Below, one piece after another: positions 854 through 4,537 of a DNA stretch of 5,474 bases; position 1 is the first letter of the stretch, and each line of letters begins with the position of its first letter. A model generated the notes under the pieces. That model had not been told where the DNA came from, did no database searches, and worked only from the letters and a program-made list of their open reading frames with translations. The stretch comes from a virus (Duplodnaviria > Heunggongvirae > Uroviricota > Caudoviricetes): IMG/VR virus record IMGVR_UViG_2698536677_000017, one strand, 5' to 3'. The position numbers were made by a program, and so were the translations under genes.

Positions 854-1569
854 TTACTTCACAACCCTCATATTGCTGACATTTGGACGCCAGCTATCCC
901 AGTTAAACGTCACCCATCGACCACCGTTCATGGTCATGCGGTCCATAATCCTCTCACCAAGAAGCGTACTCATTGCGGCATGATTCAGGTTTGTTAACAT
1001 CCCGACACTGCACAGTGATGCTGTCCGGCGATCAATTATCTGGTGCAATACCACCTGCTCGTTTTTCGTCTCCCGCTGAACGCCTATTTCATCCAGGACC
1101 AGCAAATCAACCCCGCAAAGCTCCTGTAAAAATTTTTCCCCGGATTTGCCGTTGTCGTAGCTGTCATGCAACACGCTCATGACGTCAGACACGGTGACGA
1201 TAATCACGCTGCGCCCCTTCACCATCAGCCGGTTGCCCATCGCCGCTGCAAGGTGATTTTTCCCGGTGCCACGGTCATCAGTTCGTCAGCTATGGATTTG
1301 GCCTGGCTCAGCGCGTATTTTTGCCCGTCGTTCTGCACCTGATAATTTGCAAACGAGCATTTGCTGTGCAGAGGCTGGATGCCCGAACGATTCAGGATTT
1401 TTTCCACCCGCAACTGGCGATTCTGGCGGTTAATCTCCTCGCTGCGTTTTCGTCCTTCAGCAAGTTGCCATTCCCGCCACTCCTCCACCGTCCGGTACGG
1501 TGGAACCGACCCCTGTGGTGCAAGTCTGCGAATACGTTCAAGAACCCCAACTGCCGCAATGTTTTTCAT
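854..1569 (-). pseudogene. DnaC-like helicase loader (phage replication protein, YdaV-like), disrupted by a frameshift in the Walker-A region
   Basis: Two overlapping minus-strand ORFs, 1225-1569 (N-terminal, ...NRSGIQPLHSKCSFANYQ...) and 854-1240 (C-terminal, ...VDLLVLDEIGVQ...MLTN...WVTFNWDS...), together cover a DnaC-like protein. The Walker-A core GTGKNHLAAA is encoded around 1238-1270 in the frame of the C-terminal ORF, but the N-terminal ORF reads through it out of frame (MTVAPGKITLQRRWATG then stop). The in-frame text just upstream (RTDDR) does not resemble the expected P-loop lead-in, suggesting an indel. Confidence 0.75.
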
Positions 1570-2538: not shown

Positions 2539-2560
2539 AAAACCCCCGAACACCGTGCTT

Positions 2561-2986
2561 TTAGTGCATCACCACAGCATTCCCTGCCGGGCCGCCGCGA
2601 TTCATCTGGTCATACAAAACAACCGCTGACGCAACAAAATCATCGACATCCTTCACCAGCCGATCCCTCCGTTCGACGATCTCACGGTAATATTCAGAAC
2701 TGTGGCTGCGCATACGGGCCACCAGCAAAGGCGGCATCGCCTTTTCGATCGCCGGTAACAGAGCCTGCATTTTTTTAACAGCATCAGGGGTGTCTTTCTC
2801 TACCCAGCGGAAAATTTTCTGGGTATTACGGGCCAGGGCTTCCGGATGGCTGTCGTCATACAGTTCCGGGAACGTCATTCCCAGCTCGAAATACGCTTTG
2901 GTAATTTTCGCAGCCGGTACTTTTTCGCCGTCCGGATGCGCCCAGACATTCATCGCCATGCGGATGTGTTCATGCTTGATTTTCAT
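2561..2986 (-). CDS. YdaT-like protein (Rac-type early gene; described either as a CII-like regulator or as a putative toxin)
   Basis: 141-aa ORF beginning MKIKHEHI..., ATG start with GGAG 7 nt upstream. Its start overlaps the stop of the upstream Cro-like gene by 4 bp (ATGA). Position (cro-like, then this gene, then O-like, then DnaC-like) matches the Rac ydaS-ydaT-ydaU-ydaV order. Family call is from memory. Confidence 0.65.
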   Translation of the reverse strand: MKIKHEHIRMAMNVWAHPDGEKVPAAKITKAYFELGMTFPELYDDSHPEALARNTQKIFRWVEKDTPDAVKKMQALLPAIEKAMPPLLVARMRSHSSEYYREIVERRDRLVKDVDDFVASAVVLYDQMNRGGPAGNAVVMH

Positions 2987-3285
2987 GAATCAACTCCATC
3001 AGATAAGCATGTACTACAATCACCTTCAGCATGAACTACATGTGTTTGCCCCAAACGAATGCCGCTCGCATACTCAGGCCAAATAAGCTCCCAATCATGG
3101 GGTCGTAGCTCCGCCCTACTTACTTGGCCTTCCGTCGCAGATTCGATCATAAGGGCGCGGGTTGGAGATATAGCTGTTCGTCCAGACGCCATTTGCGATA
3201 AGTAAGATGGCGATACACCAAGTCTGGCCGCGAATTTCTTAGCATCACCAACCCTTAATGATTTAATAAACTCTTTTAATGTCAT
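2983..3285 (-). CDS. Cro-like HTH regulator, YdaS family
   Basis: 100-aa ORF, ATG (complement of 3283-3285) with GAGGAAGG SD just upstream. The motif LGVSPSYLSQMASGRTAISPTRALMIESATEGQVSRAELRPHDW is typical of the YdaS/Cro-like HTH family. First gene transcribed leftward from the divergent operator region. Confidence 0.8.
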   Translation of the reverse strand: MTLKEFIKSLRVGDAKKFAARLGVSPSYLSQMASGRTAISPTRALMIESATEGQVSRAELRPHDWELIWPEYASGIRLGQTHVVHAEGDCSTCLSDGVDS

Positions 3286-3382
3286 ACCTTCCTCGGTTTA
3301 GTGTTTTTTTGCGAGTTTAGTGTTTAATAAACCATTAAGTCAAGTATTTGCTTGTTTAGTGATTACTAAAGATAATTACCAC
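3286..3382. promoter_or_regulatory. Divergent operator/promoter region (OR-like) between the Cro-like gene and the repressor gene
   Basis: Seen in sequence: three copies of the half-site GTTTAGT at 3296, 3315 and 3354. Two sit in palindromic contexts: AGTTTAGT-gttt-AATAAACC (3314-3333) and TTTAGT-gatt-ACTAAA (3355-3370). Candidate rightward promoter: -35 TTGCTT (3348-3353), 17-bp spacer, -10 GATAAT (3371-3376), placing the transcription start at or next to the repressor ATG (3383). Candidate leftward promoter: -35 TTGACT (complement of 3338-3343), -10 TAAACT (complement of 3314-3319), 18-bp spacer. Confidence 0.6.
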
Positions 3383-3754
3383 ATGCAAAAAAAAGAAATT
3401 CGCCGTTTACGTCTCAAGGAGTGGTTTAAAGATAAAACTCTGCCACCCAAAGAGAAGAGCTACCTATCTCAACTAATGAGTGGGAGAGCCTCGTTTGGAG
3501 AAAAGGCTGCCAGAAGAATAGAGCAAACATACGGGATGCCGGAAGGGTATCTGGATGCGGAATACGCAGAACAACCGGGGGTTTCTCCACCACATGCAGG
3601 GTTAACGTCTAATCAACTGGAATTATTGCAGATTTTTTCAGCCTTCCCTGAGGATGAGCAACGCCAGATAATCAGCGAGTTAAAGCAGAAAAAAGAATCA
3701 ATGGAAGATCTCATAGCGAGATGGATTGCGGCGCAAAAATGCCGCCGCGCCTGA
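3383..3754 (+). CDS. Prophage repressor, short HTH protein, DicA/RacR-like (no S24 peptidase domain)
   Basis: ATG at 3383 chosen over the GTG at 3320 given in the ORF track, because the upstream extension would cover the operator/promoter sequences. The N-terminal segment EKSYLSQLMSGRASFGEKAARRIEQTYGMPEGYLD is HTH-like; the C-terminal segment LTSNQLELLQIFSAFPEDEQRQI resembles the DicA C-terminal region as I recall it. No SD precedes the start and the -10 lies 7 nt upstream, so the mRNA is probably leaderless. Confidence 0.75.
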   Translation: MQKKEIRRLRLKEWFKDKTLPPKEKSYLSQLMSGRASFGEKAARRIEQTYGMPEGYLDAEYAEQPGVSPPHAGLTSNQLELLQIFSAFPEDEQRQIISELKQKKESMEDLIARWIAAQKCRRA

Positions 3755-3774
3755 GTTATAAAACCGGAGGAAAC

Positions 3775-3966
3775 ATGAATAGAGCCCTTTCACCAATGGT
3801 TTCTGAATTTGAAACCATTGAACAAGAAAACAGTTACAACGAATGGCTGCGTGCGAAAGTAGCAACGAGCCTTGCAGATCCGCGCCCAGCAATTCCCCAT
3901 GACGAAGTTGAGCGCAGAATGGCAGAACGCTTTGCTAAGATGCGTAAGGAACGGAGCAAGCAGTAA
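3775..3966 (+). CDS. Type II antitoxin, ParD/RelB-like ('stability determinant' type), partner of the downstream ParE-like toxin
   Basis: 63-aa ORF (MNRALSPMVSEFETIEQENSYNEWLRAKVATSLADPRPAIPHDEVERRMAERFAKMRKERSKQ). ATG at 3775 with GGAGG (3766-3770) 4 nt upstream; the upstream ATG at 3721 overlaps the repressor and has no SD. The stop TAA (3964-3966) is 1 nt before the toxin ATG. Small, acidic-to-basic profile and position upstream of the toxin are typical of antitoxins. Confidence 0.7.
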   Translation: MNRALSPMVSEFETIEQENSYNEWLRAKVATSLADPRPAIPHDEVERRMAERFAKMRKERSKQ

Positions 3967-3967
3967 A

Positions 3968-4246
3968 ATGTTACCCGTGTTATGGCTTGAAAGCGCAGAT
4001 ACCGACCTAGATGATATAACTAGTTATATTGCTCGTTTCGACATAGATGCGGCTGAACGCTTATGGCAGCGATTAAGGGGTTGTGTGCTGCCGTTATCCG
4101 AACATCCGTATTTATACCCACCAAGCGACAGAGTACCTGGCTTGCGTGAGATTGTAGCCCACCCTAACTATATAATTCTATACCGCGTAACAACATCAAG
4201 CGTTGAAGTAGTAAACGTGATCCACGCAAGACGCCAGTTTCCCTAA
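3968..4246 (+). CDS. Type II toxin, ParE/RelE superfamily
   Basis: 92-aa ORF (MLPVLWLESADTDLDDITSYIARFDIDAAERLWQRLRGCVLPLSEHPYLYPPSDRVPGLREIVAHPNYIILYRVTTSSVEVVNVIHARRQFP). The pattern W..A..DL..I..YI...D...A, then PG.RE......YII.YRV, then V.VV.V.H.RR at the C-terminus is characteristic of ParE/RelE toxins. ATG at 3968, 1 nt after the antitoxin stop. The ORF-track start at 3872 would overlap the antitoxin and is rejected. Confidence 0.8.
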   Translation: MLPVLWLESADTDLDDITSYIARFDIDAAERLWQRLRGCVLPLSEHPYLYPPSDRVPGLREIVAHPNYIILYRVTTSSVEVVNVIHARRQFP

Positions 4247-4265
4247 CTTTCACTACCAATAGAAA

Positions 4266-4310
4266 CATAACAACCGCAACGACTTTATCAAAAGCGTTGT
4301 GTTTGTTATG
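4266..4310 (+). terminator. Long hairpin downstream of the toxin gene (terminator candidate, or a regulatory palindrome)
   Basis: Seen in sequence: CATAACAACCGCAACG (4266-4281) pairs with CGTTGTGTTTGTTATG (4295-4310) across a 13-nt loop, giving a 16-bp stem with one mismatch and one G-U pair. A T-rich run (GTTTAGTTTTT, 4319-4329) follows, but only after a 9-nt gap, so it is not a textbook intrinsic terminator. Confidence 0.4.
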
Positions 4311-4316
4311 CCCCGC

Positions 4317-4358
4317 GGTTTAGTTTTTACTTGACTTAAGTTTAATGTTTATTAAACT
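4317..4358 (+). promoter_or_regulatory. OL-like operator plus rightward promoter candidate (PL analogue) for the ydfA-like operon
   Basis: Seen in sequence: GGTTTAGT (4317-4324) is identical to the OR copy at 3295-3302. A perfect palindrome AGTTTAAT-gttt-ATTAAACT (4339-4358) closely resembles the OR site at 3314-3333. Promoter candidate: -35 TTGACT (4331-4336), 16-bp spacer, -10 TAAACT (4353-4358), with the -10 inside the palindrome. Confidence 0.5.
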
Positions 4359-4537
4359 AAAAATACCAACCCACCCCGCCCCACAGAACGCAGGGAAATA
4401 CTTCGAGTTACCCGGCAGTGGTCAGGGGTTAAGTAGCCAGCCCGAGGCGTATGAACATGACGGCGGGAACACTTTGTATAACAGCGCAGCAGGTTTTTTG
4501 TTCCGCTACCCCGGCGTTAAGGGGAAATGAGGTCAAC

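Follow-up and report, generated by a model that had tools for sequence, protein, structure and literature searches.

The 97 bp that separate ydaS from paaR2 (3286-3382 of the window, the whole 5,474-nucleotide stretch of DNA analysed here) are, by their sequence, the right-operator region in the immunity switch carried by a lambdoid prophage of the CP-933P/Sp12 type. We consider it very probable that the region works as a CI/Cro-type switch, in which back-to-back promoters share four 18-bp operators and the repressor gene paaR2 is expressed from a leaderless mRNA. Experiments have already characterised the locus in full, on a sequence identical to this one: the 97-bp paaR2-ydaS intergenic region of prophage CP-933P from strain EDL933 was studied by Jurenas et al. 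(2021, mBio, PMC8630535). The prophage switch in the window is a published one and has a toxin-antitoxin pair under its control as well; the annotation is confirmed as correct.

In the mechanism that we propose, two back-to-back sigma-70 promoters would share the four 18-bp operators, whose half-site is GTTTAGTAA. The leftward promoter (TTGACT-18 bp-TAAACT) would drive ydaS-ydaT, coding for Cro and CII analogues, and the weak rightward promoter (TTGCTT-17 bp-GATAAT) would drive paaR2-paaA2-parE2. The rightward transcript would start on the A of the paaR2 ATG (3383), so that the repressor would be made from a leaderless mRNA without a Shine-Dalgarno (SD) sequence. PaaR2, the CI analogue, and YdaS, the Cro analogue, would compete for the overlapping operators: at low concentration PaaR2 would decrease PR and increase PRM, while induced PaaR2 or YdaS would repress both promoters. 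The preference of YdaS for the PRM side, and of PaaR2 for the PR side, would make the switch bistable. A transcript of paaR2 from the YdaT-dependent promoter PRE933P would be leadered, with the AUG internal and without an SD, and would count against this mechanism.

The assignment of the locus is based on direct comparisons. All 97 nt of the intergenic region (3286-3382, equivalent to OR933P, with the divergent promoters PR933P and PRM933P) match E. coli O157:H7 Sakai Sp12 and EC4115, and Sp12 of Sakai is identical to CP-933P (PMC8630535). In addition, the 30 EDL933 locus primers listed in Table S3 of PMC8630535, including those used for EMSA and footprinting, all match the window with zero mismatches (FL1, FL2, F-PRM, R-PRM and Footprint1/2 are among the 30); these primers span 3244-3330 and 3358-3443, the other 27 nt being covered by the direct comparison with EC4115 and Sakai Sp12. 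Over 2540-4364, the window and Sakai Sp12 differ at 9 nucleotides, none of which is in the operator region. The segment 2900-4300 is 100% identical to chromosomes of the ATCC 25922 type, and most of it is present in 583 of 5,426 complete E. coli genomes. In the annotation of Sakai Sp12, a "phage repressor protein CI" stands beside a "phage antirepressor protein Cro". Such identity makes it very likely that, in the strain from which the window comes, transcription starts at the same position, on the paaR2 ATG, and that the same proteins bind.

The genes on both sides are those of the characterised prophage. On the minus strand, ydaS (2983-3285) codes for a Cro analogue of 100 aa that contains an HTH (Pfam YdaS_toxin and HTH_3), of which 99 residues are identical to the O157:H7 protein, the variant being A92T; its ATG is preceded by a normal SD, GAGGAAGG (minus-strand sequence). 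Next comes ydaT (2561-2986, minus strand; Pfam YdaT_toxin), whose product is the CII analogue (PMC8630535, PMC9986795). The ydaT products of EC4115 and ATCC 25922 have one and the same RefSeq accession, WP_000693943.1, and 5 nucleotide differences between the window and O157:H7 lie inside this gene (2776-2807). Phage replication genes are found to the left of ydaT, according to the listing of open reading frames and to Pfam. On the plus strand, paaR2 (3383-3754) codes for the CI-analogue repressor, made from a leaderless mRNA; the open reading frame encodes 123 aa, one less than the 124 aa given in the original prediction, and 122 of the 123 residues are those of O157:H7 PaaR2. The variant, G67V, is just past the N-terminal region that is conserved in the family alignment. 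It is followed by paaA2 (3775-3966; Pfam PaaA2) and parE2 (3968-4246; Pfam ParE_toxin), both on the plus strand and both annotated in RefSeq, which form a toxin-antitoxin pair co-transcribed with paaR2. The window and OR933P/CP-933P of EDL933 (the same as Sp12) likewise share the order ydaT-ydaS / paaR2-paaA2-parE2 / PL region, the operators, the promoters and the leaderless start; they differ in the host strain and by the substitutions G67V in PaaR2 and A92T in YdaS. The variant proteins presumably act like those of O157:H7. No RNA family was detected by an Rfam scan of the whole window, which indicates that a riboswitch or an sRNA does not explain the region.

The original prediction had called for mapping of 5' ends, binding assays and promoter fusions, all of which, the half-site mutations excepted, are published for the EDL933 locus, with the predicted outcome (PMC8630535). 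By 5'-RACE, the +1 of PRM933P is the paaR2 start codon, and the transcription starts agree with the predicted PR933P and PRM933P (PMC8630535); primer F-1-PaaR2, which was designed from the RACE-mapped +1, starts at 3383. The N-terminal sequence of PaaR2 is MQKKE and the intact mass of PaaR2-His is 15,081 Da, which showed that translation of the leaderless mRNA begins at the paaR2 AUG (PMC8630535). The mass that we computed for EC4115 PaaR2 with a His6 tag, 15,081.0 Da, coincides with this value. EMSA and DNase I footprinting showed that the region is bound by PaaR2, which protects about 78 bp, and by YdaS, which protects 65 bp (PMC8630535). Autoregulation and repression of the promoter on the Cro side, which had also been predicted, are borne out by gfp fusions, in which PaaR2 and YdaS each repress both promoters (PMC8630535). 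A low level of PaaR2 appears to lower PR activity and to raise PRM activity; the authors drew this from the leaky expression that preceded induction. In the reporter data, YdaS has a preference for the PRM side, PaaR2 for that of PR (PMC8630535). PaaR2 has no peptidase motif, forms octamers and has "low sequence similarity" to lambda CI (PMC8630535). PaaA2 has no detectable DNA-binding motif, regulation being achieved by PaaR2, YdaS and YdaT (PMC8630535); its only Pfam match is to the PaaA2 "stability determinant" family.

Regarding the operators, the published set consists of four inverted repeats of 18 bp at equal intervals, with the half-site consensus GTTTAGTAA, of which IR1 lies over PRM933P and IR3 over PR933P, while IR2 and IR4 each retain one good half (PMC8630535). 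We find the four sites starting at 3296, 3315, 3334 and 3354, about 19-20 bp apart. IR1 (GTTTAGTGA and TTACTAAAG, 3354-3371) is the best-conserved palindrome: each half fits the consensus at 8 of 9 positions, and the site has 2 mismatches to the ideal 18-mer GTTTAGTAATTACTAAAC. IR3 (GTTTAGTGT and TTAATAAAC, 3315-3332) has halves that fit at 7/9 and 8/9, and 3 mismatches to the ideal 18-mer. IR4 (GTTTAGTGT and TTTTTTGCG, 3296-3313; 7/9 and 3/9) keeps one conserved half and is located in the 5' untranslated region of ydaS. The degenerate IR2 (ATTAAGTCA and AGTATTTGC, 3334-3351; 6/9 and 2/9) lies between the two -35 elements; its coordinates are assigned here, not in PMC8630535, and correspond to the best register near the expected spacing of 19-20 bp. 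When the ideal palindrome is searched with at most 3 mismatches, only 3315-3332 and 3354-3371 are found (0.00 expected). The heptamer GTTTAGT occurs at 3296-3302, 3315-3321 and 3354-3360, and again at 4318-4324 in the PL/OL region, so that the window has 4 copies where 0.57 would be expected, and none of 200 shuffles gave as many. The three half-sites that had been noticed in the 97 bp are therefore real, starting at 3296, 3315 and 3354, but the operators number four rather than three, evenly spaced by about 19-20 bp. As for the two inverted repeats with a 4-bp spacer that had been proposed, the one at 3355-3370 (TTTAGT-GATT-ACTAAA) is indeed a perfect 6+4+6 repeat, while the element at 3314-3333 is imperfect, its 9-bp halves fitting the consensus at 7/9 and 8/9. 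Their predicted placement is right: the first lies in the spacer of the rightward promoter, which IR1 occupies, and the second overlaps TAAACT, the -10 of the leftward promoter, as does IR3.

Jurenas and co-workers pointed out that, for the contacts of PaaR2 and YdaS, direct repeats, which they called "operators", may count besides the inverted repeats (PMC8630535). It could then be that the recognition units are the direct repeats of about 24 nt, TTTGC(G/T)(A/T)GTTTAGTG.TTA.TAAA ("operators OR1-OR3" in PMC8630535), or that each protein reads another type of repeat. Such direct repeats do exist, since 3308-3331 and 3347-3370 are 83% identical with a spacing of 39 bp, and both types of repeat were noted in PMC8630535, where the choice was left undecided. 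We nevertheless find this explanation rather unlikely: inverted repeats are the normal target of HTH dimers, IR1 and IR3 are near-palindromic, and across the related loci it is the dyad GTTTAG...CTAAAC that forms the conserved core, while its flanks vary. We favour the inverted repeats as the operators, and we infer which single repeat each of PaaR2 and YdaS contacts.

The promoters that these operators overlap are divergent. The leftward promoter, of the PR933P type (3314-3343, minus strand), has its -35 TTGACT at 3343-3338 and its -10 TAAACT at 3319-3314, separated by 18 bp, and drives ydaS-ydaT; a consensus promoter scan found it with 9/12 matches. The rightward promoter, of the PRM933P type (3348-3376, plus strand), consists of the -35 TTGCTT (3348-3353), a spacer of 17 bp (3354-3370) and the -10 GATAAT (3371-3376). 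It had been put forward as the best rightward promoter, and its geometry and the published +1 at the ATG speak for it; its weak point is the -35, which shares only three of its six positions with TTGACA. The rightward promoter was missing from the output of the same scan, and we attribute this to the poor agreement of the -35 and not to the absence of a promoter. With such a -35, PRM activity either needs activation or is simply weak.

GATAAT is followed by six nucleotides, TACCAC, and then by the paaR2 ATG at 3383, so the spacing from the -10 sets the rightward +1 on the A of the ATG. None of the motifs GGAG, GAGG and AGGA is present in the 20 nt upstream of this ATG. The prediction of a leaderless repressor mRNA without an SD is thus vindicated, by this absence and by the published 5'-RACE and MQKKE N-terminus. 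That a real leaderless gene could be found from the letters of the DNA alone validates this kind of reasoning.

The other way to read the 5' end of paaR2 is that the mRNA is leadered, that translation starts at an in-frame GTG at 3320 to give a repressor of 144 aa, and that GATAAT is not a functional -10. The open reading frame delimited mechanically does run from 3320 to 3754, and many public automated gene calls are 144 or 150 aa long (P0001 and P0002). We give this reading hardly any chance of being right. The published N-terminus is MQKKE, the intact mass fits 123 aa plus His6 and the +1 published from 5'-RACE is at the ATG. RefSeq annotates the 123-aa form, the members of the family align from the same methionine, the upstream stretch is kept as promoter and operator DNA, and an upstream in-frame start is absent at most homologous loci. 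A 144-aa product starting at the GTG at 3320 is ruled out for the identical O157:H7 sequence by the N-terminus, the mass and the family alignment. Outside RefSeq, the automated calls P0001 (144 aa, 231 database sequences) and P0002 (150 aa, 153 sequences) run paaR2 upstream through the promoter and operator DNA, a systematic misannotation of the leaderless start; automated callers often extend paaR2 to 144-150 aa because a leaderless start is not expected.

The leaderless start of paaR2 has a counterpart in phage lambda, in which the cI mRNA transcribed from PRM is leaderless. This parallel had been drawn beforehand and it extends to the distance between the -10 and the ATG, 6 nt in both cases. 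The lambda PRM sequence reads TAGATT (which we take to be the -10), TAACGT, ATG AGC ACA AAA AAG, to be compared with GATAAT, TACCAC, ATG CAA AAA AAA GAA in the window, and the early codons of cI and paaR2 are A-rich in both. In lambda OR, as in the window, divergent promoters share operators and transcription of the repressor gene begins right at its first codon. The published behaviour of the two systems is similar, with PR repressed and PRM apparently stimulated when the level of repressor is low (PMC8630535). There are also differences. Lambda OR has three operators (of 17 bp in the lambda record, 18-bp according to PMC8630535) and the window has four 18-bp sites, a contrast that was already made in PMC8630535. 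Lambda CI has an S24 autocleavage domain, unlike PaaR2, which is only 123 aa long and for which a Pfam search detected no family. The toxin-antitoxin pair of the window occupies the position of lambda rexAB, and the CII analogue is a protein of the YdaT family. The Rac prophage of E. coli K-12 has the same gene order, racR being divergent from ydaS-ydaT, and its two proteins belong to the same Pfam families, YdaS_toxin and YdaT_toxin; CP-933P YdaS and YdaT are only 26% and 31% identical to their Rac counterparts, respectively (PMC8630535).

In order to place the locus among its relatives, we scanned one genome per species, which gave 65 related loci, 57 of them with an assignable start codon. 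In about 36 of these 57 loci, from other Proteobacteria, the block formed by the -35, the operator and the -10 ends 5-7 nt, and mostly 6 nt, before the ATG; as the loci share kinship, this and the like counts are not numbers of independent events. The conserved block consists of the -35 TTGCTT, GTTTAG..ACTAA and a -10 that varies (CAAAAT, CACAAT, TAAACT, TAAAGT), and 32 of the roughly 36 loci have both a recognisable -10 hexamer and no SD. The sequence of the 6-nt spacer varies between loci while its length is constant, as expected if the +1 is required to be the A of the AUG. The leaderless layout looks family-wide, which we regard as a minor new observation. There are departures from it: in nine loci from Pasteurellaceae and Orbaceae, the distance from the -10 to the ATG is 19-29 nt and includes a GGAG or AGGA motif, which makes them putative leadered variants, and in the Photorhabdus and Xenorhabdus loci 54-85 nt separate the block from the ATG. 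Among single loci, those of Yersinia aleksiciae (L020), Proteus mirabilis (L030) and Caballeronia (L053) are predicted to be leaderless, that of Aggregatibacter segnis (L061) is predicted to have a leader of 13-20 nt with an SD, and the gap is 54 nt in Photorhabdus (L010). A distance fixed at 6 nt across many genera, with leadered exceptions, could guide work on leaderless repressors of lysogeny maintenance. We also note that in two Erwinia loci (L023 and L024) the 6-nt spacer is GGGAGG or AGGAGG, which resembles an SD but abuts the ATG and is odd for a layout of the leaderless type.

A divergent YdaS-like gene is present in 54 loci. PaaA2 and ParE2, on the other hand, were sought in the loci of the 65 related species and found in none, so that the association with a toxin-antitoxin pair is not a trait of the family. 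The residues S26, Y27, S29 and Q30 of the recognition helix are invariant across the family, which fits the conserved half-site. Given that the block is conserved across dozens of species, the idea that the repeats arose by chance in intergenic DNA that is indeed AT-rich, with a fortuitous promoter match, deserves next to no credence and is excluded by the repeat statistics: the half-site 9-mer with at most 2 mismatches is admittedly common (27 found across the window against 14 expected), but the excess of exact heptamers, which no shuffle reproduced, and the two 18-mers where 0.00 were expected speak against it, as do the published footprints that cover the region (PMC8630535).

The N-terminal domain of PaaR2 matches PDB entries 7NKV, 8C3K and 8C3L, deposited as "Phage repressor protein CI"; a literature search for papers citing 7NKV, 8C3K or 8C3L gave no relevant match. 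This domain is 57-83% identical to those of S24-peptidase repressors of 206-252 aa (P0061-P0118), which makes PaaR2 a close relative of SOS-type repressors whose C-terminal domain has been replaced. PaaR2 looks like a CI-type repressor in which the autocleavage domain has been exchanged for a C-terminal segment of about 55 residues. The S24 repressors of Serratia, Yersinia, Proteus and Erwinia have the same TTGCTT-GTTTAG..ACTAA block with its -10, 6 nt from the ATG, and a divergent YdaS-like gene 90-100 bp away. They differ from PaaR2 by their length (206-252 aa), by a C-terminal PF00717 domain, because of which they are presumably SOS-inducible, and by the absence of paaA2-parE2 downstream.

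We lean slightly towards the view that a single immunity module, defined by the leaderless PRM layout, the GTTTAG/CTAAAC operator and a divergent YdaS-like Cro gene, is spread over prophages of Enterobacterales, Burkholderiales and Nitrosomonas. This module would serve both S24-type repressors, which are SOS-cleavable, and short repressors of the PaaR2 type, in which the S24 domain would have been replaced; the -10 and the AUG would be kept 6 nt apart while the sequence of the spacer drifts, and Pasteurellaceae and Orbaceae would have inserted a leader of 19-29 nt with an SD. If this is true, the module offers a natural series in which to ask what keeps maintenance repressors leaderless, and the operator specificity is unusually broadly conserved among phage repressors.

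Two further elements lie near the genes described above. A PRE promoter activated by YdaT is located between ydaS and ydaT (PMC8630535), and the YdaT operator OM, whose motif and location are described in PMC9986795, is found in the window at 2976-2993 as a perfect dyad, TTGATT-N6-AATCAA (0.04 expected), at the overlap of the ydaT start and the ydaS stop, beside PRE933P. Beyond parE2, a PL-type promoter with similar operators has been described, PL933P sharing the -35 and the -10 of PR933P (PMC8630535). The corresponding PL933P/OL-like region (4318-4364, plus strand), just past parE2, contains IR-like sites at 4318-4335 and 4340-4357, the -35 TTGACT at 4331-4336 and the -10 TAAACT at 4353-4358; the hexamers are those of the leftward promoter, with a spacer of 16 bp versus 18 bp at PR. 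Primers F-PL and R-PL map to 4247-4364.

A perfect 9-nt inverted repeat, TTTTTTTGC (3304-3312) and GCAAAAAAA (3385-3393), flanks the operators, which puts GCAAAAAAA near the 5' end of both divergent transcripts. A run of eight A (3386-3393) directly follows the paaR2 start codon. In the homologue from Morganella psychrotolerans (L014, about 1491-1520), the equivalent A-run contains an apparent frameshift, which slippage, a sequencing error or a pseudogene could explain.

Escherichia phage Evi (L069, LR597642.1, 40 kb) carries the ydaT-ydaS/paaR2-paaA2 module with 98.3% identity. Its intergenic region has one substitution, 3308 T>C, and parE2 is not annotated in the record. A compensatory change within the 3304-3312/3385-3393 repeat was considered for this phage and rejected, since the substitutions at 3308 and 3388 do not pair. 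The presence of the module in a record deposited as a phage shows that the switch is not confined to cryptic prophages.

Last, the replication gene coding for a DnaC/IstB-like ATP-binding protein (854-1569, minus strand) is split in the window into two overlapping open reading frames, 1225-1569 and 854-1240. The gene is annotated as intact in ATCC 25922, and BLAST reveals a difference of about 30 nt near 1266-1283 and a 1-nt indel. The split frames and these differences suggest that the source strain probably carries it as a pseudogene.
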